In this document: positions 4,070 to 36,338 of the stretch, one piece after another | Position numbering within the stretch: the first letter of the stretch is position 1 | Layout of the letters: every line of letters starts with the position of its first letter | Virus record (IMG/VR): IMGVR_UViG_3300042541_003876 | Span: 1 to 64,000 of that record | Direction: 5' to 3' (one strand) | Origin: a virus | DNA length: 64,000 nucleotides | Notes under the pieces: model-generated | Told to the model about the DNA's origin: nothing | The model's database searches: none | The model's input: the letters and a program-made list of their open reading frames with translations, nothing else | Position numbers and translations under genes: made by a program

Positions 4070-4133
4070 TAAAAAAATAAATAAAAAAAGTGTTGATTAA
4101 AAACCAACACTTCCAAATAAAAATAATAAAATA

Positions 4134-4313: not shown

Positions 4314-4330
4314 GTTATAAAATATTTAAA

Positions 4331-4681
4331 TTAAACGTTAGTTTCTGATTCTTTCTCAAATCTTTCGATTGCTGAGAATTGGTATTGTTGAACTACTACA
4401 AGATTTTCTCCGTTAAAAGAAAAAACAGCCCCGGAATGAATGCCGTGATGAACGATATCTCCAACTTTTACATTTTCTACCCCTGGACCAACTGCAAGTA
4501 CTTTTCCTTTGTACTCATAACCCGAAGTAATTTCTTTTTTGTCTTTGATAAGCCCGGGAGTTTTTTCCAATTCTTTTTTTGGTTCATCCAATAACTTGTC
4601 AATTGGTTCATAAGAATTATCATCTATTTGTGATAAAATCACTGAATCCTTTGGTGCAAATAATTTTCCTCTTTTTGTCAT
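4331..4681 (-). CDS. groES: Co-chaperonin GroES-like protein
   Basis: KTPGLI mobile-loop-like segment, GKVLAVGPG, VKVGDIV; adjacent to groEL. Confidence 0.8.
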   Translation of the reverse strand: MTKRGKLFAPKDSVILSQIDDNSYEPIDKLLDEPKKELEKTPGLIKDKKEITSGYEYKGKVLAVGPGVENVKVGDIVHHGIHSGAVFSFNGENLVVVQQYQFSAIERFEKESETNV

Positions 4682-4705
4682 AATGTTGTTTTTAAATTAT
4701 AAGAA

Positions 4706-4729
4706 CAAATATATATGAAATAATTGCAA
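4706..4729 (-). promoter_or_regulatory. Repeated phage promoter, copy 3
   Basis: Minus strand TTGCAATTATTTCA-TA-TATATTTG, upstream of groES. Confidence 0.7.
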
Positions 4730-4780
4730 TAAAAAAGCCATATTTAAAAATATGGCTAAAAAAAATAAAAATGGATTAAA

Positions 4781-17680: not shown

Positions 17681-17968
17681 ATGGCGAAAATGACATTTGC
17701 AATTAGTTGCAAGAAAATCGGTTTATCACATTCTACTTCTTACTTTACTTTAGAGAAAGATTTTAATAATGAGGATCATTGTAAAAATTGGATTGCTAAG
17801 TATGGAGACACCAATTATAGAAAGGTAATAAGTTACGATAGAGTTTATTCTATTAAAAAAGAACATTCTGTTGAAGAAATGAGATCAGCTTATGAAGCTG
17901 CAGAATCAAAAAAGTTTTCGAAATTTGAGGAATGGTATAAATTTAATTTTAAAAAAAATCCTGAATGA
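17681..17968 (+). CDS. Hypothetical protein (probable start MAKMTF)
   Basis: ORF overlapping the start of the helicase gene (ATGA). Confidence 0.65.
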   Translation: MAKMTFAISCKKIGLSHSTSYFTLEKDFNNEDHCKNWIAKYGDTNYRKVISYDRVYSIKKEHSVEEMRSAYEAAESKKFSKFEEWYKFNFKKNPE

Positions 17969-20583
17969 AAAAAACAAAACAAAGCGTTTCAAGTTTAAAG
18001 CAGCTTTCATTTGATGATATGTTTGATAGTTTTTATGAAGATGAAATAGTTGAGACAATAATTGATGAAGTTATAATTGAAGGTCCAAAACATTTAGACC
18101 TTCCTTTTATTTTAATGGATATTGAAAACATACGAGCAACGGTTCCTCAACTTCTTCCAGAGCAGCATGATAATGTTTTAATGGCTGAGCTAAGATTTTT
18201 TCAACAAAAAGGAAAAGGCATGTTGTTTACTGACTCAACTGGTTCTGGAAAGACTTTTACAGGATTGGGAATCATTAAAAGATTTTTACTTCAAGAAAAA
18301 AAGAATGTTCTTATTGTAGTTCCTACAGATAAAAAATGTAAAGATTGGATTGATGATGGAGAAATTTTAGATATTCATGTTGAGCAACTTAAAGGAATCA
18401 GTGATTGTTATCTAGGAGTAAATGTTACTACCTATGCGAATTTTTATCAGAATGATAAAATTATTGAACAGCACTGGGATTTAATTGTTTATGATGAATC
18501 ACATTATCTCCAGCAGAATGGTCAAGGCGATAAAACTATTTATCAAAAGGCTCATGCAATTTTAGCAAAGCTTCCATCTACTATCAAAAGTATTTTGAAT
18601 AGTGAAGAAAATCGAGAAGCTACTTATAAGATGCCTGAAGAAAAATTGAAACAGATTATTTCTGATTATGTTCAGTCTACAAAAGTTGTAATGCTTTCAG
18701 CAACTCCATTTGCCTATGTAAAATCTATAATGTATGCAGATGGTTGTTTATGGGATATTAACGAAACAGAAGAACTTTATTCACCAATACCATCAACTAC
18801 ATATAATTCTCCAAGTAAAGAACAAGCTTTCTTTATTGAGAATTTTGGATACAGAATGAGGTACAATAAACTGACAATTCCGGATACAGGTGTTGACTTA
18901 AATCTTATGGAAAGACAATTCCATGAAAAGTTTAAAGCACTTGGTGTAATCTCCGGAAGACAGCTTGACATTGATAAGGATTATTCCCGCGACTTTGTGA
19001 TTTTAGATTCAACTATTGGCGACAAGATTGATAAAGGAAGAAAGGTTTTTTATACCGAATATTTTAAAAATAATTATAAAATACTTAATGAGTATTGGAA
19101 TAAAAAATACAAAGGTCTTTATAATCGCCAATTGCTTGAAGCAATCAAAGTAAGGTTGGTAATGCCAAGAATTATAAAGCATATTCAGAATGGCCGTAAG
19201 GTTGTTTTGTTTCATGATTTTAACACAGCAATTCCTACTCACCCATTCCGATTTACTTTGGAAGAATTAATGGGTAAAAATCACCATGATGTTAATGTTT
19301 GTAGACGTCTTAAACAAGACATCGATAATTTTCATGAAGAATACAGAGATCTGTACAATCTGGATTTATCGGAACTTACCAATGCTTTATCTGAATATTC
19401 TACTCATTTTGAAAAGAAAATTGCTTTATTTAATGGAACTGTTTCCAAATTAAAAAGAAGTAAAGTTTTTATAGAATTTATGACTGACTATTCAGAAATA
19501 GATTTATTGGTTGTTCAACGTAAAGCAGGTAAAGAAGGTATTTCCGCTCATGACATGACTGGAGTACAAGAACGTGTTTTAATCGATTTAGGACTTCCTA
19601 CTTCACCAACGGATGCTATTCAATGTGAAGGTAGGATTTATCGCTATGGTGTACAATCAAATGCCAGATTTGAGTATCCTGTAATTATGACTAACTTTGA
19701 AAGAGAGACTTTTGCTCAAACAATTGCAGAGCGTTCTCGAACTGCAGAAAATTTAGCCCTTGGAAACTTAGCCAGAAATATGGAAATTGTTTTTAAAGAA
19801 GGTTACTCTGGAGCAGATTATATCGATCCTTTGGAAACCACCGGAATCGGCGGTAAAAATACTGATAGATTCATTATGGAAATTTCAGAGTTTGAAAGGT
19901 CTAAAACTTATTATTGGGCGAATCAAAAGAAAACTGCTAAAAATAAAGCAGCTGAAGGTAAAGATTACTACGCAACTCCAGAACCTTTAGGTTTTAAGAT
20001 GGTTGAGTGGCTGAATTTACTTTCGAACCAAAAAGTTTTAGAACCATCATGTGGTCACGGTGCAATATCTAGATTCTTTCCTGCGTTTACAAATAATGTA
20101 ATGATAGAACCAAGCTATGATCTTTCGACAAAAGCAATGATTAATTCTACAGGTGATGTTTACAACATTACTTTAGAAGATTATTCTATAGTCAATAGTT
20201 TTGATAAAATTGCAATGAATCCTCCATTTGGTAGAGGTGGTGCTTTGGCCGCCGAACATATTAAAAAATGTTTGAGATATCATTTAAGAAGAATATACGA
20301 TAAAAGTTCAATGCTAATTGCTATTGTTCCGGACAGTCCGATTTATGATAAAAAAATAGCAGAAGTAATGGAGATGATAGAAATTCGACGTTACTTTAAA
20401 CTGACCAGAGAAATTATTCTTCCATTGTGTACTTTTGAAAGAGCCGGAACAAATGTAAAATGTAAGATTCAGTTCTTTGAAACATTTGATCCTTACAATG
20501 AAAAGCCTTTGCATAATATAGATTTGTCTTATGCAAAAGATATAAAAGAATTCTTTTCTTCAATCGAAAATTTAAATTTCTAA
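17965..20583 (+). CDS. SF2 helicase fused to a C-terminal N6-adenine DNA methyltransferase domain
   Basis: Helicase motifs: Walker A DSTGSGKT, YDESH, LSATPF, QCEGRIYRYG. Methyltransferase motifs: DYYATPEP, VLEPSCGHG, MNPPFG. Confidence 0.88.
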   Translation: MKKTKQSVSSLKQLSFDDMFDSFYEDEIVETIIDEVIIEGPKHLDLPFILMDIENIRATVPQLLPEQHDNVLMAELRFFQQKGKGMLFTDSTGSGKTFTGLGIIKRFLLQEKKNVLIVVPTDKKCKDWIDDGEILDIHVEQLKGISDCYLGVNVTTYANFYQNDKIIEQHWDLIVYDESHYLQQNGQGDKTIYQKAHAILAKLPSTIKSILNSEENREATYKMPEEKLKQIISDYVQSTKVVMLSATPFAYVKSIMYADGCLWDINETEELYSPIPSTTYNSPSKEQAFFIENFGYRMRYNKLTIPDTGVDLNLMERQFHEKFKALGVISGRQLDIDKDYSRDFVILDSTIGDKIDKGRKVFYTEYFKNNYKILNEYWNKKYKGLYNRQLLEAIKVRLVMPRIIKHIQNGRKVVLFHDFNTAIPTHPFRFTLEELMGKNHHDVNVCRRLKQDIDNFHEEYRDLYNLDLSELTNALSEYSTHFEKKIALFNGTVSKLKRSKVFIEFMTDYSEIDLLVVQRKAGKEGISAHDMTGVQERVLIDLGLPTSPTDAIQCEGRIYRYGVQSNARFEYPVIMTNFERETFAQTIAERSRTAENLALGNLARNMEIVFKEGYSGADYIDPLETTGIGGKNTDRFIMEISEFERSKTYYWANQKKTAKNKAAEGKDYYATPEPLGFKMVEWLNLLSNQKVLEPSCGHGAISRFFPAFTNNVMIEPSYDLSTKAMINSTGDVYNITLEDYSIVNSFDKIAMNPPFGRGGALAAEHIKKCLRYHLRRIYDKSSMLIAIVPDSPIYDKKIAEVMEMIEIRRYFKLTREIILPLCTFERAGTNVKCKIQFFETFDPYNEKPLHNIDLSYAKDIKEFFSSIENLNF

Positions 20584-20844: not shown

Positions 20845-22329
20845 ATGGTCAATTATGACATACATGCACGAGACTTAATTGAACAGCAGATTCTTTCTTC
20901 CATCATCAATCTTTCAGCGTACAATACTATTGAAAAGGTTAAAAATTTATTTATAAATATTCATGGCCTTGACAATCCTGAATACTTTGGTTCTTCAATG
21001 AACAAAAGTGTTTTTATTGCAATTTTAAGATGTTGGGAAAATGAAGTTCAAGCAGATATAAGTATGGTTTGTACTTTCAAACCAAGAGATGTTATTGCAG
21101 GAAATAATCACTTACATTTTGAAGGTAAAAAAAAGAATGATGACGGTTCAAATAGCCTTTATGATTTAGATAATGATTGTAAGTATTTTGATAATTACAT
21201 TATCGATATTTCAATGAAATGGTTAAGTGAAACAAATCTTGAAAAAACAATTTTTATTCACAAGCAATTTATATTGATTGATTATTGGAATAATAAAGCT
21301 AAAGATATTCTGTATAACGAATGGGAGCAACGTGATATTCTTGTTGTTACCAAAAATATTATAGATGGTCACAATCTTTTATTTGATAAAATCACCAAGA
21401 CTTTTCAAAAGAACACCGAAGTTTTAACTCCAAAAGAAAGAATGAGATTAGAGCGCCAGCGTGTAAAAAATGGAGAAGTTATTTGGGTTCCTTCCGGAAT
21501 ACCACCGGTTGATATTAAATGGAAAGGCTATTGGAATGGAGAGGTTACTATCATTGCAGGAAGACCTTCAATGGGTAAAACAGCATTAATGATTGCTTCA
21601 GCAGTTCATTCAGCTTTTAACTTTAATAAAAAAGTAGCTTTCTTTTCCTTGGAAATGGATAAGACAAGATTAATGAATCATATTATTTCTGCAAAAACAG
21701 GGATCAGTTATAAGGCAATGAAAGAACATTCTACAACTGATCAGGAATTTGAAGTAATAGAGCAATGGTACGACTGGTTTGAAATAGAATCAAATTTGAA
21801 AATTTATGACATTCACGAGTGCCAGACTTTAGATGAAATTTTATATTTTATTCCAGGAAACGAAATTGTATTTATTGATTATCTTCAACTTGTGAAACTT
21901 GTAAAAACTACCAAGAAAAAGGATTTTGTCCGGGAACAAGATGTTGCCGAAATATCCCGAAGTTTTAAACTTGCTGCTTTACAACATCAAATACCTTTGG
22001 TTATTGGTGCTCAGTTAAACAGAGATGTTGACAAAAGACCAGGACATATTCCGGTTCTTGGTGATTTGCGGGAATCAGGTAGTATCGAACAAGATGCAGA
22101 CAATGTTTACTTTCCGGTAAGACCATCATATTATGATGAGATTGCAAATCCAGATGCGGTTATTCCGTATTGGCAAAAAGGAAACTTTACAATGCGTGGT
22201 GCAAAAGGTAGAGATACAGGAACTGATAATCTAAAATTCCACATGGATATGTTAACTTATAAATTTACAGACGGCCATTTACACACAGCGCCAGAACCCG
22301 AATTCAATGTCGGTAATATGAAAATCTAA
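20845..22329 (+). CDS. dnaB: DnaB-like replicative helicase
   Basis: IIAGRPSMGKT, FFSLEM, FIDYLQL, AQLNR, DLRESGSIEQDAD, KGRD. Confidence 0.95.
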   Translation: MVNYDIHARDLIEQQILSSIINLSAYNTIEKVKNLFINIHGLDNPEYFGSSMNKSVFIAILRCWENEVQADISMVCTFKPRDVIAGNNHLHFEGKKKNDDGSNSLYDLDNDCKYFDNYIIDISMKWLSETNLEKTIFIHKQFILIDYWNNKAKDILYNEWEQRDILVVTKNIIDGHNLLFDKITKTFQKNTEVLTPKERMRLERQRVKNGEVIWVPSGIPPVDIKWKGYWNGEVTIIAGRPSMGKTALMIASAVHSAFNFNKKVAFFSLEMDKTRLMNHIISAKTGISYKAMKEHSTTDQEFEVIEQWYDWFEIESNLKIYDIHECQTLDEILYFIPGNEIVFIDYLQLVKLVKTTKKKDFVREQDVAEISRSFKLAALQHQIPLVIGAQLNRDVDKRPGHIPVLGDLRESGSIEQDADNVYFPVRPSYYDEIANPDAVIPYWQKGNFTMRGAKGRDTGTDNLKFHMDMLTYKFTDGHLHTAPEPEFNVGNMKI

Positions 22330-24728: not shown

Positions 24729-26201
24729 ATGAAGAAAAACGAAGAAAGAATAACGAAGTTTTCTCCAGATCAAATTCTGGCTCTTGAGAGAATTGAGGAA
24801 TTCAGAAAACAACCCATAGTCAAGAATGACGTTAATTCAAGAGTAATGGTTATTATCGGCGCCGCTGGCGTCGGTAAAACCACTCTTATTAAATATGGTT
24901 TGGAGGACTTAATTGCAAAAGATACAGAAAAAGAGTATGATGATGAACAAGTAGATGGTGGTTTATTTTCTTCTACACCAGAAGTTATAGGAGTATGTTT
25001 AGCACATCAAGCAAAAAAGAATCTTAGAAAATCACTTCCACATACAAAAACTTTTGCTTCATTTTTCGGCATGAAAGAAACTCATGGCGATGAAGGACAA
25101 AAAAAATTTGAAGTTGATGAATATGCGCTTAGGTTTGCATTATGTAAAGCAGATTTATCATTTGTTGTACACGACGAAGTCTCTATGTATGATATTGATA
25201 TGATCAATATTATTTTGAAAGAAACTAATCCAAGAACTAAAATCATTTTAATGGGTGATGCATGTCAATTACCCCCAATTAATACAGTTGGTGATGATGA
25301 TAGTCCTGCTTTCGAAATGTTTACTAATGTAGTCGAATTAACTAAACGTCATCGTCAAGAAGAAGAAAATCCACTTCTTGAATTATCAGATATTTTAAGA
25401 GAAGAAATTCGTGGAAAACAAAATGTGAAACGAGTTTTAGAAGCGATGAAAAATAATAACATTGTTAATGGAAAAGGTTTTAGAAATGTTTTTTATAGAG
25501 ATTTTCTGAAAGATTATAAGTCGATTACTTCCAATTATAAAGAAGCAAAATTAATTGCTTACCGTCGTGCAACAGTTCAAGATTATAATATCAAAATTCG
25601 TAATTATCTTTATCCTACCGCTGATCAAATTTATATTCCAGGAGAAATAATTTACATGAATGATACTTTTAGGCAAGAAAAAAGTGAGCCGATAAATCCT
25701 GATGACCATTTGGATGAAATCATTAAAAAGAAACAGGCTCCTGCAGAATATTACTGTTACAATTCCGATGAATATGTCATCAATACAGTTGAAACAGGTT
25801 TTGTTGAAGGAGTAAAGATTTATAAAATCTATTTTGATAAGTCGGATCGTCCGGATATCGCCGTAGAAAAACCTTATTTTCCAATGCTTCATCCATCAGG
25901 AGTAACTAAGTACAATGAAACTTTTTATTATCGTCGTGGAAAAGCTTTAAATGAGTTTGACAGAAAAAAGAAAAAAGGTTATTGGAAATGGTTTTATATT
26001 TTCAAGAATCAGTTTGGTGATTGTTCTTATGCTTATGCATTAACAGGTCACAAAGCTCAAGGAAGCGGATATAAATACGTTTATGTTGATGTAAGCGATA
26101 TACTTACCGTTGGTCCAATTTCGGACAAAAGAAAGCTCCAAGCAATCTATACAGGAATGACAAGAGCAACAGATATCGTATTATTTTTAAAATCAAAATA
26201 A
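24729..26201 (+). CDS. SF1 helicase, Dda/RecD-like
   Basis: GAAGVGKT, HDEVSM, MGDACQLPP, RQ, YALTGHKAQGS, YTGMTRA. Confidence 0.92.
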   Translation: MKKNEERITKFSPDQILALERIEEFRKQPIVKNDVNSRVMVIIGAAGVGKTTLIKYGLEDLIAKDTEKEYDDEQVDGGLFSSTPEVIGVCLAHQAKKNLRKSLPHTKTFASFFGMKETHGDEGQKKFEVDEYALRFALCKADLSFVVHDEVSMYDIDMINIILKETNPRTKIILMGDACQLPPINTVGDDDSPAFEMFTNVVELTKRHRQEEENPLLELSDILREEIRGKQNVKRVLEAMKNNNIVNGKGFRNVFYRDFLKDYKSITSNYKEAKLIAYRRATVQDYNIKIRNYLYPTADQIYIPGEIIYMNDTFRQEKSEPINPDDHLDEIIKKKQAPAEYYCYNSDEYVINTVETGFVEGVKIYKIYFDKSDRPDIAVEKPYFPMLHPSGVTKYNETFYYRRGKALNEFDRKKKKGYWKWFYIFKNQFGDCSYAYALTGHKAQGSGYKYVYVDVSDILTVGPISDKRKLQAIYTGMTRATDIVLFLKSK

Positions 26202-26488
26202 TGAATAAAAAAAGTCAAGAAGAAATTTTTCAGGAAACCTGGGATAATTCAGAATTTAATGTTTTTAAGTATAAAAAAAAAGGTGGTAAAATAACCACAA
26301 AAAACGAAAGTTTTTTTCTTACCCCACTTCTTAAGAAAAACAAATTGTATACTTGGGAAAAGATTAATCGCGAAGCAACTTTGATTGTTGATGGGAAATC
26401 AGAACTTTCCTCAAAAGCGAGAGGTGTTATTGATCATGTTCACACTCATGTTCTTATTATGTATCAAAAACAATTCAATGGAGAATAG
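26201..26488 (+). CDS. Hypothetical protein
   Basis: 95-aa ORF coupled to its neighbours. Confidence 0.6.
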   Translation: MNKKSQEEIFQETWDNSEFNVFKYKKKGGKITTKNESFFLTPLLKKNKLYTWEKINREATLIVDGKSELSSKARGVIDHVHTHVLIMYQKQFNGE

Positions 26489-27362
26489 TGAGTTTATTCA
26501 ATTTGAAATAAAAGCTTCGTCTCATACGAATGCTATTTTAGATACTGGAAAGATTGCCTTATTCGATGCAGATTTTTTCAAATATCACGCTACATATAAA
26601 AGATTCAAAGAAATTGAATCAGATAAGCAAGCAGGAAGATTTCCGATATTTGAAAAAGAATTGCCAATCCTGAGAATAGTTAAAAGTATGCTTGCAACAT
26701 ATTTGCTGAAAATTAAGGATCCTATTATTTTTTGTTTTTCTGGAAGTTCCAAAAATACTTTTCGTGCGCATTGTGCTGTTGAAAAAGAATACAAAGGAAA
26801 CCGTAACAAAACTGAGGATAAGTATGATTACGATGGAAAGATGAATGATATTTTTACTTTAATGAAATTCATTAAGGAAAATTATATGTCATTGCTTTTC
26901 GAAGATTTAGAAGCAGATGATATTGTTGCGGTACTGCAGGATGAAAATACCTATATTATTTCTCAGGATAAAGATTTAAAACAAGTTCCTGGATTTCATT
27001 ATAATTTTGGAAACAATACCATTGAGGAAGTCACAAAAGATCAGTCAATGTACAATCTGATGTTCCAGATGATTAAAGGAGATACCACGGATAATATCGC
27101 AGGTATTCCGGGCGCCGGAGAAAAAAAAGCAATTACTGTACTTTCAGAAGTAAGACCACCTAAATATATTAGTAGGGTTTTATTTGAATACCAGTCTAAA
27201 TTTGGATTAATGGAAGGAACAGACCGATTTGTTGAATCGTGGAATTTGATAAAAATGAGAATGAATAGAGGTGTTCATTTTCGTTCCAAATACCATCGAA
27301 TGTTTGACCTCAAAGAATTACTCATTAATCAATTAAAACAAGAAAAAAAGATAAAGAGTTGA
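26478..27362 (+). CDS. 5'-3' exonuclease (T7 gp6/FEN-like; probable start MENSEF)
   Basis: LFDAD, FR...YKGNR, LEADD, SQDKDLKQVPG, GDTTDNIAGIPGAGEKKA. Confidence 0.92.
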   Translation: MENSEFIQFEIKASSHTNAILDTGKIALFDADFFKYHATYKRFKEIESDKQAGRFPIFEKELPILRIVKSMLATYLLKIKDPIIFCFSGSSKNTFRAHCAVEKEYKGNRNKTEDKYDYDGKMNDIFTLMKFIKENYMSLLFEDLEADDIVAVLQDENTYIISQDKDLKQVPGFHYNFGNNTIEEVTKDQSMYNLMFQMIKGDTTDNIAGIPGAGEKKAITVLSEVRPPKYISRVLFEYQSKFGLMEGTDRFVESWNLIKMRMNRGVHFRSKYHRMFDLKELLINQLKQEKKIKS

Positions 27363-27388
27363 AGTTATTTCAACTCTTTATCTTTTTT
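27344..27388 (+). terminator. 20-bp perfect hairpin terminator followed by a -7 promoter element
   Basis: aaaaaagataaagagttgaa-gttat-ttcaactctttatctttttt; TAAATTTG at 27391. Confidence 0.75.
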
Positions 27389-27423: not shown

Positions 27424-28653
27424 ATGTCAGAAACTAAAAACGCCTTGGAAGTAGAAGTAATCATTCCAAAGGAAGTTCTTGAAAATAACGAAGGACTAAA
27501 AAAAATGTACGATGAAAAGAAAAAATCTTTATCATATGTCATGGGAGCAGAAACTACAAAACAACTTAAAGATTACATTTCAGATGTAGTAAAAAGTTCT
27601 ACTTCTGAAGAACTTGCTTTGTTCAATCCAGTATTTAGCGCTATCAGTTTTATTCAAAATTTCCGTTCCCTTAAATGGAATCCGGAAAAGAAAAATGAAA
27701 AAGAATATACTCAAGCAAAAACAATACTGGGTAAATTCAATACTGCAATTAAAACAACTGCGTCAGAAATTAAGAAACCGAGAAATGAATACAATAAAAA
27801 AGTTATTCAGCTTGAGAAACTTCTTAATGAAGAAAGCGCAAATGTTCGGGCAGCTTTGGATAAAAACTTTGATGAACTGCTTAAAGAAAAGTTAGCAAAA
27901 GTAGAAGCTGCTAATGCTAAAAAAGATGCGGTGAAAGACGGTCAGATTGCGGAACTTTCTGCTGAAAACACAAAGAATACTGAATTACTTACTAATCAGA
28001 AAATAACTACAAGAAAATTAGAAATTGATAATATTATTGCAAAAGTTGTTATCGATGTTACGGGTAAATTAGATTCTTTAAATGAAGAGGGATTAGATAA
28101 ATTACGAGTAGAAGTTTTGGATAAAAAATTAGGAGACACTGATACTCCGGATGTAACTTTTTCAGTCGAAGAAAAAACAAAGTACAGGAAAGATTTTGCA
28201 ACTCAGGTTTTAGCTGCTATCAAATTAATTGATGATAAAAAGCAAAACCTTTCTCTTACATCAACTAATGCAAACCTGGAGACTGAAAATAAAGTTTTGA
28301 AAGCAAATACACCATCGGCTTTTGTAGACGATGAAGATGATATGCCTTTCGAAATTACTACAGCAACACCAATTACTCCACAGCCAATTGCGCAACCGGT
28401 TCTGGTTACAGATGCTGATAAACTTTCATTAGTTGCTCAACTGATTGATGAAACTAATACTGCACTTATCAATGCTGTTTCTACTATCAATAATTTAGAA
28501 TTTGAAGATCCATCACTTCAATCTATTCAAAGAAAATTGGTAGATGTATCTATGAAAAACATTCTTGACTGGACGGATAAAACAAATATTTGGACGGCCA
28601 AAAAGAAAGAAGCATATATTAATCACATTAATTCTTTACAAAATGAACTTTAA
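27424..28653 (+). CDS. Coiled-coil protein (DUF1351-like N-terminus possible)
   Basis: AKTILGKFNTAIKTTASEIKKPRNEYNKKV pattern; internal DDEDDMPF. Confidence 0.7.
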   Translation: MSETKNALEVEVIIPKEVLENNEGLKKMYDEKKKSLSYVMGAETTKQLKDYISDVVKSSTSEELALFNPVFSAISFIQNFRSLKWNPEKKNEKEYTQAKTILGKFNTAIKTTASEIKKPRNEYNKKVIQLEKLLNEESANVRAALDKNFDELLKEKLAKVEAANAKKDAVKDGQIAELSAENTKNTELLTNQKITTRKLEIDNIIAKVVIDVTGKLDSLNEEGLDKLRVEVLDKKLGDTDTPDVTFSVEEKTKYRKDFATQVLAAIKLIDDKKQNLSLTSTNANLETENKVLKANTPSAFVDDEDDMPFEITTATPITPQPIAQPVLVTDADKLSLVAQLIDETNTALINAVSTINNLEFEDPSLQSIQRKLVDVSMKNILDWTDKTNIWTAKKKEAYINHINSLQNEL

Positions 28654-29296
28654 GCTACCAAAACTTCAAGTATTTTTAAATGGAGACAAAAAAACCGATG
28701 AAACTGATGCTACAAAAAACATTCATGTTATCGGTGGTCATGCTATTGTAAGCAATGACATTATTGCAATTGTTAATCTTCGTGAATATGTCAAACGAGA
28801 ATTAAAAATCAATGACGATAATGATTTGCAAGAGTTGTCCCAAATTATTGATTGGATGAATTATAAGTCATTCACAAAAGAATTTTGGAGCGAACTTACT
28901 TCCGAAAAAATTGTTTCATTATTAGATGATGGTTTGGAAATTACTCACCAGAGTTATACTAAACATCTGAATTATCTTGATAATGATGCAGATCCTGAAA
29001 GAGCTTATCAACTTACAAAAGATAATATCAATCGCAATGAAATTGAAATGTCAAGATTTGCATTATCAGGAGAGCATCTGAGTTTAATATCAAAAGGCTT
29101 TGCTTCTGAAATGAAAGGAGATAATCTCATTTTTAAATTGTCAGGAACAGGAAACGCGATCATGTTTTCTCTTCAGAGAAGAGATTATATATTTGGTGTT
29201 ATTCCTGAACATTTCGATTCATCAATGGACCTTGCCGCTTTCATTACTTCGGAAGGTTTGTTTGAGTTGCTTCGAGCAAAAGAATTTAATCAATAA
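28643..29296 (+). CDS. Hypothetical protein (probable start MNFKLP)
   Basis: ORF coupled to the previous gene; followed by a terminator. Confidence 0.7.
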   Translation: MNFKLPKLQVFLNGDKKTDETDATKNIHVIGGHAIVSNDIIAIVNLREYVKRELKINDDNDLQELSQIIDWMNYKSFTKEFWSELTSEKIVSLLDDGLEITHQSYTKHLNYLDNDADPERAYQLTKDNINRNEIEMSRFALSGEHLSLISKGFASEMKGDNLIFKLSGTGNAIMFSLQRRDYIFGVIPEHFDSSMDLAAFITSEGLFELLRAKEFNQ

Positions 29297-29302
29297 CTTT
29301 TA

Positions 29303-29331
29303 AAGGCGGTCTTAGTGCCGCCATTTTTTTT
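29303..29331 (+). terminator. Intrinsic terminator
   Basis: ggcggtc-ttag-tgccgcc followed by a T run. Confidence 0.6.
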
Positions 29332-29334
29332 ATT

Positions 29335-29994
29335 ATGGCAACTGAAATAAACATGACCGAAGTCTATTTTGAATGGTGGTTAAAAGAACTTCAAGCAAAA
29401 GGGTTGGTATTATATTATGAAAGAGAACCTCAAAGTTTTGTGTTGACGAATCCGGTTCAAATCTTTTACAATCAATTCAAAGCAACTAAAGAGATTATAA
29501 AATCTTTTGAATTATATTCACCATTAACATACACTCCTGATTATAAAGTAGTGATTTCCGAAAAACTAAAAAATAGATTATTCGGTGTTGTTTCAAAGGA
29601 ACAGCAGATTTTAGAAGATGAGGATTTTAACGAAATAGGTTCTGCTTATCAAAATACTATTTTCTATACTGAGTCGCTTCAAAAATCTAAAGATTATCCA
29701 GGTTGCTATGAAATATGGTTTGATGTAAAAGCACCGAATGCTGCATCAAATGTTAATCCTCGTTTAACATCTACCAGAGATTTTAAATACGTCTCTCGTT
29801 TGATGTTTGACACTCATGGAATAGTCGTTAATAAAGTCGTTCCTATTGGAATGAAAACGTGTTTATTTGGTAAAACATTTATGCCAAAAAGATATAGGTA
29901 CACGGATATTTCCGGACAGCTTAGAAAATTAAAAGATTATGAATCTGGCTTTCGTAATCTTGAACAGTATTTAGAAATCAAAAAAGTAATTTAA
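29335..29994 (+). CDS. PD-(D/E)xK nuclease / resolvase-like protein
   Basis: E...YYEREP..F.L, TYTPDYKV, WFDVK. Confidence 0.7.
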   Translation: MATEINMTEVYFEWWLKELQAKGLVLYYEREPQSFVLTNPVQIFYNQFKATKEIIKSFELYSPLTYTPDYKVVISEKLKNRLFGVVSKEQQILEDEDFNEIGSAYQNTIFYTESLQKSKDYPGCYEIWFDVKAPNAASNVNPRLTSTRDFKYVSRLMFDTHGIVVNKVVPIGMKTCLFGKTFMPKRYRYTDISGQLRKLKDYESGFRNLEQYLEIKKVI

Positions 29995-30012
29995 TTTTAA
30001 AAATCAAAAAAA

Positions 30013-30648
30013 ATGCAATTATCAAAAGTATTATTATTAGGACTTTCACACTTTTCAATTGATGTGAAACAAACAGAAACCAAAGTTACTGTGGTCTTTT
30101 CTCCAAAAACAACTGTTACCGATCCTGCGGTAAAAGATTTAAAACCATTAATTATTAACTTTGATTCTCCGGAAGAAATGGATGAGAAATTTGTGGAAAT
30201 GATTACTGGGCCAGTTCAAAAAACAGTTCAGTTGTTTACGGGTATCGAAGATTACGAAAAACAATTAGCAGCAACCGCCAAGAAAACCAAAGAAGCTGAT
30301 GCTGAGAAAAAAGCAAACAGTACCGCGGCGGCGAGTAAAAAAGCAGCAGATGCAAAGAAAAAAGAAGAGGTTGCAAAAGCAACTCCTACTTTAGAATTTA
30401 CTGAAGAAACTCCAGTGGAAAAACCTGCAGAAGTAGAAACTAAAAAAACAGCACCGGAATTAATCAAGGAAATATCTGATAAAAATAAAGCTGAAGTTCC
30501 GGTTGTTGAGGAAGCAAAAGTCGAAGAGGAAATCATTCAGACTCATTCTTACGACAATGAAGATGTTGTTGATGCAACAGACCAAGAGCAGGAAGAGGAA
30601 GAAAATCAAGAAGATTTATTTTCATCAGTTCCGGATTTATTTTCTTAA
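30013..30648 (+). CDS. PRTRC system protein E
   Basis: VTVVFSP...DPAVKDLKPLII..SPEEMDEKFVEMITGPV, followed by a K/A/E low-complexity tail. Confidence 0.8.
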   Translation: MQLSKVLLLGLSHFSIDVKQTETKVTVVFSPKTTVTDPAVKDLKPLIINFDSPEEMDEKFVEMITGPVQKTVQLFTGIEDYEKQLAATAKKTKEADAEKKANSTAAASKKAADAKKKEEVAKATPTLEFTEETPVEKPAEVETKKTAPELIKEISDKNKAEVPVVEEAKVEEEIIQTHSYDNEDVVDATDQEQEEEENQEDLFSSVPDLFS

Positions 30649-30666
30649 TCATTAAATATTTATAAA

Positions 30667-30888
30667 ATGGCTACAGTACAAGCAATTACCAGAAAGTTCT
30701 CATTAAAAGTAAATGGAAACACTATAGAGTTAGATGATCCAAATCCGGAATTATCTACAGACGAAGTAAAAGATATTTTGTCTAATCATTACCCTCAATT
30801 ATTAAATTCAACTATTAGTGACAAAGGTCTTTCAGATAACGGAGACCACACTTTTGAATTTATTACTGTTGCAGGAACAAAAGGATAA
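30667..30888 (+). CDS. PRTRC system protein C (prokaryotic ubiquitin-like protein)
   Basis: TRKF...LDDPNPELSTDEVKDILSNHYPQL...FEFITVAGTKG; C-terminal GTKG. Confidence 0.92.
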   Translation: MATVQAITRKFSLKVNGNTIELDDPNPELSTDEVKDILSNHYPQLLNSTISDKGLSDNGDHTFEFITVAGTKG

Positions 30889-30891
30889 AAT

Positions 30892-31095
30892 ATGAATGCA
30901 AAACAGTTTTTAAAATTCTGTAAAGAAAGAGGGGTCGGTAACGATCCCTCTTTTTCTATTGGAAAAGTAAAAAAAGAGAATTCCAATATTATAAACTTAA
31001 TGTCTTCAATATGCAAAACTCAAAAAAATCAATCGGAACACAACACATTCCAGGAGAAATTATACCAAGCAAAAACAAAAACTTTTTTGAGTTAA
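30892..31095 (+). CDS. Small hypothetical protein in the PRTRC operon
   Basis: 67-aa ORF between protein C and the next gene, a position seen in Bacteroidota PRTRC loci. Confidence 0.5.
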   Translation: MNAKQFLKFCKERGVGNDPSFSIGKVKKENSNIINLMSSICKTQKNQSEHNTFQEKLYQAKTKTFLS

Positions 31096-32084
31096 CATCT
31101 TTGTTACCTCGAATTATTGTTCAAAATCAAAATGAAAAGAGTTTTGAATGGTATGTTTCTTATTGCGAATTACTTATTAAGATTTTAGAAAACTATAATC
31201 TTTTAGACCAAGTTGATTTTGAATTTGTAGAATATGATTCTATAATAACATTAACAATAGAACTTGAACGAGTAGTACAACTTATTGAAGGCTGGACTGA
31301 TGATACATCTCGTCATGATTATTCAGATGAACTTGCTGTTTCGATATACACTGAAGATTTCAAAAACAAAAAATTAAAAAACGTAACATTAGGATTTCCG
31401 GATTTAAACCCAGATTACATTTATGTTTATTATATAACACAATTCCGAAAATTTAAAAGCCGAAAAATGAGAATCGGTTTTTGTCATTTTCTTCATCATT
31501 TTAAATACCTCACTCCATTACCATTATCTGATGATGCACTTTCCTATTACACTACTTTAGAAATGGAGTTAGATAATTATGAAGACTTTGATCCGGAAGA
31601 AATGCAAGATGACACTTTTGTTTCTGGTCTTTTTGATATGAAATCTTTACTTGAAACCAGAGAACCTATTTTGAAAAAAATATTTTCTGAGTTCAATGAA
31701 TATTCTATTTCTTATTATTCAGAGTTCCTAAGTTACAATCCTCGGGATCCAGAATTAAAAAAAGTCAAAGAATCAATAATTTTCTGTGTAGATAACTTAA
31801 AAGGTTTTCATGAAAAATACGGATGTTCTTTTTATGGTGCCGATGAAGGTGGGATTCACTTTGAAGAAATGTTTAGGATTTTTCCTGAAAAAAATGGAAT
31901 AGATGACTATGAAGTTGACAGTATTCAAATTAATGCTCAAAATGGAGTCTTACCATTAGAGTCTTTTTTAACATTTAACAAAACAACTATAAATTTCGAA
32001 AAAAGAGAAAAATCAAAAAAGATTTTTAATGAATTATTACATCACTTAATTGTAATTTCTGAATATTTTAATAAAGATGAATAA
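31011..32084 (+). CDS. PRTRC-associated acidic protein (protein F position)
   Basis: 357-aa acidic ORF between proteins C and B; assigned by synteny only. Confidence 0.55.
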   Translation: MQNSKKSIGTQHIPGEIIPSKNKNFFELTSLLPRIIVQNQNEKSFEWYVSYCELLIKILENYNLLDQVDFEFVEYDSIITLTIELERVVQLIEGWTDDTSRHDYSDELAVSIYTEDFKNKKLKNVTLGFPDLNPDYIYVYYITQFRKFKSRKMRIGFCHFLHHFKYLTPLPLSDDALSYYTTLEMELDNYEDFDPEEMQDDTFVSGLFDMKSLLETREPILKKIFSEFNEYSISYYSEFLSYNPRDPELKKVKESIIFCVDNLKGFHEKYGCSFYGADEGGIHFEEMFRIFPEKNGIDDYEVDSIQINAQNGVLPLESFLTFNKTTINFEKREKSKKIFNELLHHLIVISEYFNKDE

Positions 32085-32739
32085 GAAAAAAAAAGAAGAA
32101 AAAACAGACCTTATTGGGGTAATATCTGTTTACGAGAATTTAGTTTTATACCATTCAAATAAAAATGGAGAGCTGTCTGCCGGTAAACTTTTAGATAAAG
32201 AATCAATGAAAAAGATTTTTAAATTTTTACAGACAGGTTCAGATTTGGTTTCATACAAATTTGAAGGAATGGTTCCGGAAAATGTTTTAAAATACAATTC
32301 CGATAACGGTGATCTTTTGTTTTACACAAAACCTCAACGTCGCACAATGATATTCAAAAAAGACCTTCCTGTGCAAACTGCAGAATATAATTTGCCTTAT
32401 ATCTTATGGCAATATACAAATGGAAGTCTTAAAGTTTTTTCCTTAAAATCAAAACCTAAAAACGAAAAAGATATTTTATACAATGCCCCTTTCTTTAACA
32501 CTAATTCAAGCGGCCTTGTATGTATGGGAAATGTTAATTATAAAAACAATACTGGCAAATTCAATGGCTTTATGGACCAGCTTCAAGAATTGTTTTTTAA
32601 TTCAATTTTTAATGCAAGTCATAACAACAAAATGGCTACAGAAAACATCATTGATGTTTATGAAAAAGCAAAATCAAAAGATTTTAACTGGAATGAATAT
32701 TTGGTTAAATCATCATATACTTTAAAAAACGTATTATGA
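32077..32739 (+). CDS. PRTRC system protein B (prokaryotic E2 family D)
   Basis: GMVPENVL, LFYTKPQRR, LYNAPFFNTNSSGLVCMG, FFNSIF. Confidence 0.88.
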   Translation: MNKKKKEEKTDLIGVISVYENLVLYHSNKNGELSAGKLLDKESMKKIFKFLQTGSDLVSYKFEGMVPENVLKYNSDNGDLLFYTKPQRRTMIFKKDLPVQTAEYNLPYILWQYTNGSLKVFSLKSKPKNEKDILYNAPFFNTNSSGLVCMGNVNYKNNTGKFNGFMDQLQELFFNSIFNASHNNKMATENIIDVYEKAKSKDFNWNEYLVKSSYTLKNVL

Positions 32740-33464
32740 GTTACAAAATAAATGGATATTTACAAAATCCAAACCATGCAATTACTGTTGATGTAGTTGG
32801 TTGTGGCGGTACCGGTTCTTTTGTTCTTTCAAGATTAGCAAGATTAAACTATGCTCTTAAAGCAATGAATCATCCCGGACTCCATGTGAAAGCTTACGAT
32901 GATGATAAAGTAGAATCTCATAATGTTGGTAGGCAAAATTTCTACGAAACGGATGTTAACGATTACAAATCAACAAATATTATTGAGAAATGTAATATGG
33001 CTTACGGAACAACTTGGGAAGCTTTTAGAAAAAAACACGATGCAAAAATAAATTCAAATATTTTGTTTTGTTGCGTTGATAATGTTCAATTCAGAAAAGA
33101 AATCTATGATCGTGGTAAAATAAAAATTACTAATCATACAATGTATAATCAAGGATTGTATTTGTTTGATTGTGGAAATGGAAAAGATTTTGGCCAAGTC
33201 ATAGTTTCGGAACTATTTGATTCTAATTTAAAAGACACCATTGATTTCTTTCCGGAAATGATGTCTCAAGACAATGAAAAAACTCAGGGAACTAAAGGTT
33301 GCAGTTATGCAGAAAAACTTCAAGAACAGAGTTTATTTATTAATGATTTTATTTCTGCAGAAGCTTGCAATTTATTTTTTGTGATGCTTACGTCAAAAAC
33401 AATTGATTACCAAGGCGTGATTATCAATCAGAACAATTTTAAAAAACAACCGTTAAAAATTTAA
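32736..33464 (+). CDS. PRTRC system ThiF family protein (E1-like adenylyltransferase)
   Basis: VVGCGGTGS, YDDDKVESHNVGRQ, CCVDN, DCGN..FGQV, GCSYAEKLQEQSLFIN. Confidence 0.92.
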   Translation: MSYKINGYLQNPNHAITVDVVGCGGTGSFVLSRLARLNYALKAMNHPGLHVKAYDDDKVESHNVGRQNFYETDVNDYKSTNIIEKCNMAYGTTWEAFRKKHDAKINSNILFCCVDNVQFRKEIYDRGKIKITNHTMYNQGLYLFDCGNGKDFGQVIVSELFDSNLKDTIDFFPEMMSQDNEKTQGTKGCSYAEKLQEQSLFINDFISAEACNLFFVMLTSKTIDYQGVIINQNNFKKQPLKI

Positions 33465-33466
33465 TC

Positions 33467-33688
33467 ATGAGTACATATGAAATTTTCTTTTGGTTAATGC
33501 TTTTCTTTTATTGGATACAACAATTTATTAATTCAAAAAATCGAAAGAAACAACAGAAACTTAATGCAGAAATATTGTCTTACAAAGACAGAACGATTGC
33601 TTCGTTGATTAGACAAAATCAATTGCAAGCTGCAAAAATTGATTTCCTTGAAAAGATCAGGAGATACCCTAACGCTAATTACAATTAA
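33467..33688 (+). CDS. Small membrane-anchored coiled-coil protein
   Basis: N-terminal hydrophobic segment. Confidence 0.6.
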   Translation: MSTYEIFFWLMLFFYWIQQFINSKNRKKQQKLNAEILSYKDRTIASLIRQNQLQAAKIDFLEKIRRYPNANYN

Positions 33689-33689
33689 A

Positions 33690-33860
33690 ATGTTTATCGT
33701 AATATTTAATATCGGAAGCCGTGACGTCACATTGATGACAAATAACCATGGATTTATTGAAGAGTTTTATGACTATGAAACCGCTGTACAACATGCTAAA
33801 GAATGGTTAGACGAAGACCAGTTCAGAAAATTTGAAGTATTTGAAAAATCAAAAAATTAA
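33690..33860 (+). CDS. Small hypothetical protein (probable start MFIVIF)
   Basis: Starts 1 nt after the previous stop. Confidence 0.55.
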   Translation: MFIVIFNIGSRDVTLMTNNHGFIEEFYDYETAVQHAKEWLDEDQFRKFEVFEKSKN

Positions 33861-33864
33861 AAAT

Positions 33865-34320
33865 ATGTTACTAATCGAAGACAAAAGAGAGCGATACGTC
33901 GTTGATAAAAAGAATTTCAAGGGAAATGTTCAATCAATCCTTTACGGTCAAAAATGCCCATACAGCGGAAAGACTGAACGGGAATATTTATCACAAGGAT
34001 TTGTGATTTATGATTCGTGGGATTTGTTTTACGATGAAATGGTAAATCCTTATTTACTTTCCTTACAAGGTGAGTGGGTTGAAATTTCAGAAGAGCGATA
34101 CGATGATATGCTAAATTGCTTACCACCGATGCGCTGGAGAAACATTGCTTCCGGAATAAATTGTTTTGCAATGTGTGAAGGATTAACCTATGATTTGCAT
34201 TCATTTTATTTACAAGTTACCGACGGAAAATCTGTAAAGTATTACACCGCTGTTCGCAGGATTCGTGAAAAAGATTCAGTGATTGCAGCAGATATTATTA
34301 ATCAATTGAAACTAGGGTAA
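33865..34320 (+). CDS. DUF1419-like protein
   Basis: WVEISEERYDDMLNCLPP...FAMCE motif. Confidence 0.65.
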   Translation: MLLIEDKRERYVVDKKNFKGNVQSILYGQKCPYSGKTEREYLSQGFVIYDSWDLFYDEMVNPYLLSLQGEWVEISEERYDDMLNCLPPMRWRNIASGINCFAMCEGLTYDLHSFYLQVTDGKSVKYYTAVRRIREKDSVIAADIINQLKLG

Positions 34321-34559
34321 TGAGAGCAATTGATATTAATAATGACGATTTATATGAATACAAAAAAGATCGTCAAAGAACAAAACAACGACTTCAACAG
34401 CTTATTGATTTAGGTTGTGAAGAAATTGGCGTTTTTTCTTTTGGAATTAAAGATGTTTTTTCCGGATTGTATATCGAAAAAGTTTGGAGTTATTCTGAAA
34501 AAGACTGGAATGATTATATGGATTTTACTAATAAACTAATTAAAAACAGCAAAAAATAA
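34320..34559 (+). CDS. Hypothetical protein
   Basis: Coupled ORF (TAATG). Confidence 0.65.
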   Translation: MRAIDINNDDLYEYKKDRQRTKQRLQQLIDLGCEEIGVFSFGIKDVFSGLYIEKVWSYSEKDWNDYMDFTNKLIKNSKK

Positions 34560-35083
34560 TGGAATTTACAATAGAGCAATTTAAAGCAATGAATAAAGGA
34601 AACGAAAATCTTGGCGCTTACTTCGGTGAGTGGACTCCTGAACTTGGATTTCCCTTTTCTTTTAACGAAAAAAAAGTTCAGGAAAATTTTGAACTTTTTA
34701 AAGAAATGCAGAAGTCAAGATTTGTTATAAATCCTTCACCTATTCATCCGCGTAATGGCGATGTTATTCATTTGCCAAATAACAAAATGGTTTATATCTG
34801 TCATGTTTGGGATACCAATGTACAGACTACACAAGGTGGTTCATTTTCGCTTCATTCAGCGGGTGGGATGTCTTACTCAGGTGGATTAGATTCAGGTCTT
34901 AAAATAGAAGATTTGGTAGAATCAGATGAGCAGGATTTTTGTATCTGCTGGTTTCCGGAAGGTGGAAGACTGCGAGCTCATTCTGCGCTTTTTGCGAAAA
35001 TCAAAGTTCGTGTTTGGAAAGTAAAAGAAGATGCCGACCTTTCCGGTGTTTGGAAAAGTAAAGAACGTAAAACAGAAAATTAA
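34559..35083 (+). CDS. DUF4121-like protein
   Basis: PRNGDVI...GGSFSL..GGMSYSGGLD...CWF....RAH. Confidence 0.6.
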   Translation: MEFTIEQFKAMNKGNENLGAYFGEWTPELGFPFSFNEKKVQENFELFKEMQKSRFVINPSPIHPRNGDVIHLPNNKMVYICHVWDTNVQTTQGGSFSLHSAGGMSYSGGLDSGLKIEDLVESDEQDFCICWFPEGGRLRAHSALFAKIKVRVWKVKEDADLSGVWKSKERKTEN

Positions 35084-35097
35084 ATAAATTTTAAATT

Positions 35098-35334
35098 ATG
35101 GATGCAAAAACAGCAAGACAAATAGCCGAAAAAACAAAATCAAGTGCTATTAACAAAAGCTTTGATGAAATAATGACTAATATTTTACGTGACAGTAAAC
35201 AAGGTCATTTTGAAAGTCATTACTACAAATCAATACCTTTTGAGACTACCGTTAAATTGGAAGAATTAGGCTATAAAGTTTCTAAACCTTTACAATCCGG
35301 GCCAAATGAAATGTGCGTAACTATTAAATGGTAA
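35098..35334 (+). CDS. Hypothetical protein
   Basis: 78-aa ORF with the common phage pattern LEELGYKV...IKW. Confidence 0.7.
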   Translation: MDAKTARQIAEKTKSSAINKSFDEIMTNILRDSKQGHFESHYYKSIPFETTVKLEELGYKVSKPLQSGPNEMCVTIKW

Positions 35335-35337
35335 ATT

Positions 35338-35766
35338 ATGAAAAAGCAATTAACAAAAGATAACAATCATCTTTACTTCTGGGTTAATAATGAAGAATTG
35401 TTTGAAACCTATCAAACTATCAGAGGTCGAAGATGGAGATTAATTATGCCTGTTTTGGGTATGAAAAATATTGAGAAATGTTCTGAAGAGGATATCGAAA
35501 TGATTGAAATGATTTATGTCAATATTTACAATCTTGAAGGTAGATTTCAATTTTATCTGCAAATGGTAAAATTGGATAAAGACAAAATTTCAGTGCATCA
35601 GTACGAAGAAACCCGAAGAGCATTTTTCGGAGCATGCGGGATTATTATGGATATTTTCAAAAATAGAATTCCTGAAGAAACAGATGAAAATGCATTTAAT
35701 ATAATGACCAATTTAGAAAATCAAATAAAGAATTTTTTTATTGACCAGGATAACAATTTTAATTAA
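35338..35766 (+). CDS. Hypothetical protein
   Basis: QYEETRRAFFGAC motif, seen in small phage proteins. Confidence 0.7.
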   Translation: MKKQLTKDNNHLYFWVNNEELFETYQTIRGRRWRLIMPVLGMKNIEKCSEEDIEMIEMIYVNIYNLEGRFQFYLQMVKLDKDKISVHQYEETRRAFFGACGIIMDIFKNRIPEETDENAFNIMTNLENQIKNFFIDQDNNFN

Positions 35767-35771
35767 TAATT

Positions 35772-36038
35772 ATGAATACAAAATATAATACTAAAAAAAA
35801 ACTAAAGAAATTAAAAAAACAAATTGTAGAAAATTCTGCAATTTTTGTAGGTTATGATTGTTCAATACTGGAAAATTTACCAAGTTATTCTTTATTACAA
35901 GCTATAAAAGAAATTTCTATACATCGATTTATTAAAGAAAAAACTGATGAATCAGAAAGCATGAATATAGTAGTAACAGAATCTGTAAAAGCAATGAGTT
36001 ATCAGGACTTTAAAAAAGTTTCAGATTTTTTTATTTAA
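35772..36038 (+). CDS. Hypothetical protein
   Basis: Last plus-strand ORF before the convergence point. Confidence 0.55.
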   Translation: MNTKYNTKKKLKKLKKQIVENSAIFVGYDCSILENLPSYSLLQAIKEISIHRFIKEKTDESESMNIVVTESVKAMSYQDFKKVSDFFI

Positions 36039-36292
36039 TCATCTACACCATAACCGTGTTGAGAAAGCAATTCAATCTCAATCTCACCGATGCTTTCTTT
36101 AGCATTGAGATTGAGATTTTTTTTAAAAGTTTCTTTTTTACGTCGGATCATATCAGGAATAGAATAACCTTTTATTATTACATCATTGATTTTTCTTTTA
36201 CGAGAAACAGTGGTTACACGACCTGTTTTCTCTTTAATTTCTAAAGTGATATTGGCTATATAAATAGGTACATTAAATTTTTGCATAGACAA
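36035..36292 (-). CDS. Small basic hypothetical protein (start uncertain)
   Basis: 85-aa ORF; TATATTTG -7 element at about 36290-36297. Confidence 0.6.
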   Translation of the reverse strand: MSMQKFNVPIYIANITLEIKEKTGRVTTVSRKRKINDVIIKGYSIPDMIRRKKETFKKNLNLNAKESIGEIEIELLSQHGYGVDD

Positions 36293-36298
36293 ATATAT

Positions 36299-36338
36299 AA
36301 AAAACCACTTTTATTGTGAAATAAAAGTGGTTTTTTTT
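36299..36338. terminator. Terminator downstream of the virion RNAP gene
   Basis: aaaaaaccacttttatt-gtga-aataaaagtggtttttttt. Confidence 0.8.

Follow-up and report, generated by a model that had tools for sequence, protein, structure and literature searches.

What does a bacteriophage do with a ubiquitin-like conjugation cassette encoded among its replication genes? The question is raised by positions 30013-33464 of a 64,000-nucleotide stretch of DNA (hereafter the window), which forms the first 64 kb of the 77,741-bp virus record IMGVR_UViG_3300042541_003876 in IMG/VR, a metagenome assembly without terminal repeats that CheckV estimates to be 98% complete. An initial annotation, made from the letters alone, had recognised here an operon of the PRTRC type (ParB-related, ThiF-related cassette), encoding a ubiquitin-like protein (Ubl) together with E2 and E1 enzymes, and had proposed that it tags host defence or replication proteins or competes with host Ubl pathways. 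Our analysis suggests that the cassette is a reduced PRTRC system, native to the phage, whose conjugation activity may be directed at the replisome, a reading to which we give a probability of about one in two.

The six intact open reading frames (ORFs) and the motifs that the initial annotation had quoted were all found at 30013-33464, on the plus strand. In order, they encode PRTRC-E (30013-30648); PRTRC-C, a 73-amino-acid Ubl of the Prok_Ub family (30667-30888) that ends in a free C-terminal Gly within the sequence GTKG (30874-30885); a small conserved ORF of 67 amino acids, here called ORF x (30892-31095); a 357-amino-acid protein of unmatched fold, here called mid, which occupies the position of PRTRC-F (31011-32084); PRTRC-B, an E2-like enzyme of the Prok-E2_D family (32077-32739; Cys149 at 32521-32523); and a PRTRC ThiF-family E1 (32736-33464; GxGGxG at 32799-32816; Cys189 at 33300-33302). 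Spacing is tight, with gaps of 18, 18 and 3 nt and overlaps of 85, 8 and 4 nt at the last three junctions. Searches with hidden Markov models (HMMs), a check that had been suggested beforehand, bore out the family assignment. The E1 passes TIGR03736 (PRTRC_ThiF; 189.7 bits, cut-off 144.75), and the Ubl passes TIGR03738 (PRTRC_C; 55.7 bits, cut-off 45.95), aligning through the end of the model, as well as PF14454 (Prok_Ub; 1.4e-16, 60.5 bits, cut-off 25). The other two members are assigned by Pfam: the E2 matches PF14460 (Prok-E2_D; 1e-21, 77.9 bits, cut-off 25) and scores 77 bits with TIGR03737, under the equivalog cut-off of 131, while PRTRC-E matches PF19556 (1.7e-13, 51.1 bits, cut-off 26) and scores 34 bits with TIGR03741, just under the cut-off of 37.95. 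In PHROGs, E, mid and B were without a family and ThiF had only a weak match. Among proteins of solved structure, the closest relatives of the E1 are the adenylation domains of UBA6, UBA1 and NAE (6.5e-8).

The residues expected to carry out catalysis are conserved in both enzymes. All 27 E1 homologs compared share, without exception, G22, G24, G25 and G27 of the GCGGTG loop, R66, Q67, D115 and C189, and all 83 E2 sequences share C149, G151, N141 and P107. Erosion of the catalytic cysteines in phage homologs, which had been raised as a ground for doubting a working system, is thus not seen. As judged from these residues, the cassette is an apparently intact PRTRC-type set of Ubl, E2 and E1. 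Four of the eight PRTRC features are present (ThiF, C, B and E); those lacking are ParB, A, D and F. Six-frame searches of the whole 77,741-bp genome gave no match to ParB (TIGR03734, at E<=1), to protein A (DUF2016 plus Prok-JAB; TIGR03735 and PF14464), to protein D (TIGR03739) or, by HMM, to protein F (TIGR03742 or PF14456, alpha-hel2). As a control on the search for the JAB peptidase, PF14464 was positive in 11 of 14 control genomes and TIGR03735 in none.

The missing peptidase has a counterpart in the Ubl. In JAB-bearing cassettes the Ubl is 129 amino acids long: its Prok_Ub domain spans residues 2-64, closes with ...RKG and is followed by a tail of about 65 amino acids. Among Ubls from viral contigs, a C-terminal Gly is found in 72 of 77 and the ending GTKG in 53 of 77. 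Since the JAB-less Ubls stop at their Gly and the JAB-bearing ones are tailed, loss of JAB accompanies a Ubl that is made in mature form, ending at its Gly. The earlier proposal that the Ubl of the window needs no processing is in accordance with this pattern.

To place the cassette among its relatives, we surveyed IMG/VR. A single-protein query gave no match and an alignment was needed as query; it retrieved 381 candidates, and layouts were drawn from the best 80 loci. In these best 80 of 381, the dominant arrangement is E, C (66-75 amino acids), a protein of 340-420 amino acids, B and ThiF, without JAB. Only four of the 80, all of proteobacterial type, carry JAB, F and a tailed Ubl. The same JAB-less layout, with Ubls ending in GTKG, was present at 13 chromosomal loci of Bacteroidota, a phylum in which TIGR03736 was detected in 10 of 401 sampled genomes. 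No ParB gene was seen adjoining the cassette in the maps of JAB-less loci. Fifty IMG/VR records were checked: completeness is 90% or higher in 26, 19 are classed as proviruses, two have terminal repeats and 15 match one terminase family. We conclude that the JAB-less, ParB-less form is the standard Bacteroidota-type cassette and is common in phages, proviruses and chromosomal elements. The absence of ParB and JAB, to which the initial annotation had drawn attention, extends to the whole genome and is nothing special to it. Nor is PRTRC, known mainly from plasmids and integrative and conjugative elements (ICEs), new to phages: a phage-borne cassette is already annotated in Ralstonia phage Dina, prophage copies have been mentioned (PMC13366799; bioRxiv 10.64898/2026.10.01.756045), and the reduced form proves common in our phage survey.

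Several features of individual loci deserve mention. One JAB-less cassette belongs to a phage whose genome measures 139 kb and has direct terminal repeats (L069; IMGVR_UViG_3300044712_002452), so that the cassette spans very different phage sizes. At the chromosomal loci (L128-L140), which are probably ICE-borne, a DUF932 protein of about 357 amino acids is encoded either just ahead of E or further upstream, past a few small genes, and the neighbours include a UvrD-like helicase, AAA_21 and NOV_C/sacsin-like proteins. Six IMG/VR loci (L060, at 3971-6046, and five others) encode, about 3 kb downstream of ThiF, a 691-amino-acid fusion of Amidoligase_2, DAM-like-phage2 and GNAT-phage-like domains, a set that we take to be typical of DNA hypermodification.

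The cassette is native to the phage and lies inside its replication module. Its GC content (0.29-0.31) is that of the remainder of the window, as the initial annotation had remarked, and both of its borders are bridged at 99% identity or more by Logan contigs from four other lake-water metagenomes, which derive from different studies of 2020 and 2024 (the X2 records, for example, cover 29677-31413 and 33315-34158). Cassette and neighbours are kept together at 30-57% protein identity in L005, L068, L071, L084 and L087, of which L005 is a complete (100%) genome of 78,454 bp with direct terminal repeats, and L084 and L087 are metagenome contigs. In a quick IQ-TREE tree of ThiF, in which L132 and L068 sit on suspect long branches, the window groups with these loci in a supported clade (97 in the Shimodaira-Hasegawa-like approximate likelihood ratio test, SH-aLRT). 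It might still be argued, since ICEs and plasmids are the best-known carriers of PRTRC and the phage contig comes from a metagenome and shows no terminal repeats, that an ICE fragment was mis-assembled into it or that the cassette is decaying, functionless cargo. This is scarcely credible given the independent assemblies that cross both borders, the uniform base composition, the synteny with flanking phage genes in L005, L084 and L087, and the fact that every catalytic residue is intact. Misassembly in particular, which the initial annotation had named as a danger, was rejected on the contig-level data from the four other lake metagenomes.

What might the conjugation machinery act upon? A sliding clamp is one candidate. 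Two genes upstream of PRTRC-E, the ORF at 28643-29296 on the plus strand encodes a 217-amino-acid protein whose AlphaFold2 (AF2) model (mean predicted local distance difference test score, pLDDT, 86) has the fold of a two-domain clamp. In a VIA-align wide search the top 39 matches were all sliding clamps, after which the Z-score dropped to 3.0; the best were the beta clamp 7evp_B (Z 10.6 over 160 amino acids at 3.0 A), proliferating cell nuclear antigen (PCNA; 8.3) and T4 gp45 (6.6). The top Foldseek matches were likewise all clamps, with weak E-values, and the ESM Atlas pointed the same way. The start at 28643 is consistent with 17 homologs of 215-292 amino acids, mostly 215-241. This predicted clamp gene is likely to be a partner or context gene of the cassette.

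The neighbourhood of other cassettes points in the same direction. In the largest flank cluster the gene immediately preceding E encodes a full three-domain DnaN, and in about 20 of 73 IMG/VR loci only 0-109 nt separate dnaN from the E gene downstream of it. In two metagenome contigs, L098 (1127-3034; dnaN of 438 amino acids) and L100 (3298-5120; 411 amino acids), dnaN stands between E and C, which places the clamp gene inside the cassette. In L088 it is immediately 3' of ThiF, and in L084 and L087 a two-domain clamp gene precedes E. Over all loci, 28 dnaN genes were present, 25 of them either inside the cassette or no more than 1 kb from it. This association turns up in scattered parts of the ThiF tree, where well-supported branches force at least six changes. 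Moreover, DnaB is encoded directly downstream of ThiF in many loci.

PRTRC-E itself offers a possible point of contact with the clamp. The protein is built of a folded N-terminal domain of about 95 amino acids, a Lys/Ala/Glu-rich linker and an acidic tail, and in the window the C-terminus carries the clamp-binding-like motifs QEDLF (residues 199-203) and PDLF (residues 207-210), encoded at 30607-30642 on the plus strand. The pattern [STDGNA][LMI]F occurs in the E tail of 41 of 57 E clusters, compared with 7.6 expected from shuffles; it occupies a single alignment column, with Q at -4 in fourteen. The published consensus for beta-clamp binding is Q-phi-x-[L/M]-[F/L] (PMC11139829). PRTRC-E thus appears to carry a conserved clamp-binding-like motif that resembles this consensus.

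The genes preceding the cassette are those of a replication block on the plus strand, as the initial annotation had stated: a SNF2/ResIII helicase fusion (17965-20583), a DnaB-like helicase (20845-22329), a Dda-like helicase (24729-26201) and a 5'-3' exonuclease (26385-27362), with three unannotated genes between the block and the cassette. In six frames of the whole genome, no match was found to the Pfam families DNA_pol_A and DNA_pol_B. Although it encodes three helicases, a 5'-3' exonuclease and a clamp of its own, the phage shows no recognisable polymerase of these families and probably depends on the polymerase of its host.

Taking these observations together, we propose the following scheme. 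By analogy with the chemistry of the families concerned, the ThiF E1 would adenylate the exposed C-terminal Gly of the 73-amino-acid Ubl and then hold the Ubl as a thioester on Cys189, from which it would be handed to Cys149 of the Prok-E2_D enzyme and on to a lysine of the target. A JAB peptidase would be unnecessary because the Ubl is made in mature form. From the genetic context, we suggest that this machine acts at the replisome, with PRTRC-E as the adaptor: the QEDLF/PDLF motifs of its disordered tail would dock on a sliding clamp, either the two-domain clamp of the phage or the beta clamp of the host, and so deliver the Ubl-loaded E2 to that clamp or to proteins that ride on it. The mid protein and ORF x may set target specificity. 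Given that no recognisable DNA polymerase accompanies the helicases, exonuclease and clamp, tagging may help the phage to seize or retune the host polymerase machinery. A bolder version of the same scheme regards PRTRC as the mobile-element counterpart of PCNA ubiquitination, in which E docks through Qxx[LM]F, the E1 and E2 tag the clamp or clamp-bound replisome proteins, and phages, often equipped with a clamp of their own, and ICEs thereby take over or re-programme host replication; this generalisation we put forward tentatively and consider rather doubtful.

A number of observations weigh against a replisome-directed conjugation system. An accessory His downstream of the catalytic Cys of the E2 was noted by Iyer et al. 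2006 (PMC1779556) and is present in 68 of 83 sequences; at this place the window has A180, with a His at 182 (32614-32622). The E motif is short and often without its Gln, so that another binding partner is possible, and position 2 of QEDLF is Glu rather than the aliphatic residue of the consensus. ICE-like chromosomal copies have DUF932 before E instead of a clamp. Adjacency to the clamp gene may in part reflect plain membership of a replication module, and related loci are not independent of one another. Furthermore, neither PRTRC-E nor the E2 has a meaningful solved relative by sequence, each belonging to a family without a solved structure, and in the literature on Prok-E2, on ThiF of crAss-like phages and on Ubls with sliding clamps we found no study of PRTRC function. 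The E2 of the related locus L068 is without the accessory His altogether.

Other roles for the cassette have to be considered in the light of the same evidence. Counter-defence or host takeover apart from replication, in which the Ubl is put on host defence proteins or interferes with Bil or with Cap2 of the anti-phage signalling system based on cyclic oligonucleotides (CBASS), is suggested by the part that other bacterial E1/E2/Ubl systems play in phage-host conflict (PMC10557695, PMC10097602). The very fast evolution of mid would fit an arms race, as would the mutational hotspot that a preprint reports in PRTRC-B of a Phocaeicola prophage (bioRxiv 10.64898/2026.10.01.756045). We nevertheless think this role unlikely. 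Matches to defence models are limited to a weak, generic E1 (E 1e-4): in PADLOC (2023, which may lack Bil models) only the E1 matched, at E 1.5e-4 to 7e-3 and to E1-E2 fusion models, the other five proteins being unmatched, and the E1 scores 17.9 bits with the NCBIfam 6A-MBL model cap2_3, for which the cut-off is 320. Across many lineages the cassette lies between replisome genes rather than in anti-defence islands, and the same cassette is found on chromosomal elements; a device against Bil, moreover, would more likely take the form of a deconjugase, and there is none here. Of the targets put forward by the initial annotation, replication proteins are therefore favoured by context and host defence proteins find no support, nor does anything in the analysis speak for competition with host Ubl pathways.

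A sulfur-carrier or small-molecule pathway would give the Ubl a different task, that of a ThiS/MoaD-like protein bearing a ThiF-made thiocarboxylate for the modification of nucleotides, DNA bases or cofactors. The E1 is of the ThiF family and has weak matches to ThiF of the thiazole pathway, the Ubl ends in Gly as do ThiS and MoaD (PMC1779556), and the amidoligase/DAM-like/GNAT fusion is encoded about 3 kb downstream in six loci. Such a pathway is nonetheless improbable, since an E2-fold protein with an invariant Cys is always present, the best solved relatives of the E1 profile are protein-conjugating E1s, and among the cassette proteins we saw neither a rhodanese nor a cysteine desulfurase nor a sulfur-acceptor enzyme. 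Even less probable is a function in episome maintenance or partition, by which the phage genome would persist or segregate in a carrier state. Canonical PRTRC does travel with ParB on plasmids and ICEs, PMC13366799 names it a partitioning cassette, and records classed as proviruses make up 19 of the 50 checked in IMG/VR; against this, ParB and PRTRC-D are undetectable in the genome, we noticed neither a partition ATPase in the region nor an integrase in the window, and the JAB-less loci do not show ParB next to the cassette in their maps.

The two accessory proteins of the cassette, to which we tentatively ascribe target specificity, had no family match in HMM scans. For mid, only eight relatives were found among 1.84 billion representatives, and a profile of these relatives matched 68 same-position proteins of other loci with an hhalign probability of 97.8% (E 1e-12). 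The small number of relatives and the profile match argue that mid represents a cassette-specific family that evolves fast. Neither HMM nor profile comparison linked mid to PRTRC_F or alpha-hel2; compared with the Dina-type F, the mid family gave an hhalign probability below 1%, and only position and size agree. The AF2 model of mid (pLDDT 86.8) has no fold match in the PDB (best Foldseek E 0.34; best VIA-align wide Z 3.5). ORF x was found by tblastn at the same place in L086 (44% identity, E 4e-11) and L084/L085 (34%, E 9e-5), with weaker matches in L087 and L005, and L084 repeats the 85-nt overlap of ORF x with mid. Because both position and sequence are conserved in related loci, ORF x is genuine.

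The 77,741-bp genome is that of a crAss-like or Cellulophaga-phage-like phage from lake water, with a GC content of about 31% and, on the minus strand, a giant gene of the virion RNA polymerase type (3,963 amino acids); its host is probably a member of the Bacteroidota. Around the cassette, the Cellulophaga phages phi13:2 and phi19:3 showed a DNA match of no more than 61 nt. Immediately upstream of PRTRC-E, a plus-strand gene (29335-29994) encodes a 219-amino-acid protein that we call DUF1064-like from ESM Atlas features and a structure search; the ESM Atlas points to viral clusters and DUF1064, as a lead only. This gene is kept beside the cassette in L005, L068, L071, L073 and L079. Directly upstream of the clamp gene, and overlapping it by 11 nt, 27424-28653 encodes a Lys/Glu-rich, probably coiled-coil protein of 409 amino acids that had no family match and has relatives only in L068 and L071. 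Three genes past ThiF, 33832-34320 encodes a 162-amino-acid protein with DUF1419 (PF07215, 1.7e-7), for which BLAST found no homolog among the IMG/VR loci.

Signals for transcription were also sought around the cassette. After the clamp gene, a terminator-like hairpin on the plus strand (29305-29322) has a 6-bp stem with five GC pairs and a T-run; as a match to a consensus, it possibly marks where the transcription unit containing the cassette begins. From 29322 to 36299 the plus strand contains no terminator-like site, the next one being at 36299-36336. The block from 27.4 to 36.3 kb is bounded by long perfect hairpins with stems of 17-20 bp (27344-27388 and 36299-36336) and T-runs on both strands, which are likely to be bidirectional terminators. 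Patterns for sigma-70 and Bacteroidota-type promoters showed no excess over chance.

How the cassette compares with known systems defines what is new about it. It corresponds to type 6d among the operons of Iyer, Burroughs and Aravind 2006 (PMC1779556). Like canonical PRTRC (TIGR03734-03742), it runs from E through C (Prok_Ub) and B (Prok-E2_D) to ThiF, has a protein of some 350 amino acids encoded between C and B, and is carried on mobile DNA. It differs in having no ParB, no protein A (DUF2016 plus Prok-JAB) and no protein D, in the protein at the F position, which shows no detectable similarity to PRTRC_F or alpha-hel2, in its untailed Ubl and extra ORF x, and in its place within a phage replisome module near a clamp gene. 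Carriage by a phage is already known from cultured temperate phages, in the order E-C-F-B-...-ThiF: RefSeq names E-C-F-B-A-ThiF in Ralstonia phage Dina (NC_055026), and Burkholderia phage BgVeeders33 likewise carries PRTRC, with a small ORF between C and F. In contrast to the window, these phages and prophage AB2 (PMC13366799) have the full proteobacterial form with JAB protein A and a 129-amino-acid tailed Ubl, to which AB2 adds ParB; their hosts are Pseudomonadota, their genomes measure 33-39 kb and their ThiF proteins are only 28-30% identical to that of the window.

Comparison with bacterial defence systems shows a shared chemistry. E1 adenylation, an E2 Cys and a C-terminal Gly are common to the window and to the Bil, CBASS Cap2 and Bub operons (PMC10557695, PMC10097602, PMC11601596). 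Those operons are nevertheless built from other protein families, to which the window shows only weak matches in the nucleotide-binding region of the E1, and they are host-encoded, defensive and usually equipped with a deconjugating peptidase, whereas the cassette of the window is phage-encoded and has none.

In eukaryotes, ubiquitination and SUMOylation of PCNA use Rad6-Rad18 and Ubc9-Siz1. The proposed likeness is that of a Ubl cascade brought to the sliding clamp by a short clamp-binding motif; the adaptors of the window are non-homologous, there is no RING E3, and modification of the clamp is hypothetical.

What is new here is that JAB loss goes together with a mature Ubl, that the cassette is linked to the clamp and that E bears a clamp-binding-type motif. 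Records of PRTRC on plasmids, ICEs and a few prophages go back to 2006, and the papers that mention it, including PMC13366799, call its function unknown, a guess at partitioning being the only functional proposal. Phages whose hosts are of Bacteroidota type commonly carry the reduced form, in some cases in a complete genome, and the present analysis turns an orphan cassette into a concrete hypothesis that can be tested in the laboratory. It would extend bacterial ubiquitin-like biology from defence toward phage replication. Should the parallel with PCNA hold, a bacterial replisome would for the first time be seen to undergo Ubl modification, and the function of PRTRC, a question open since 2006, would be settled.

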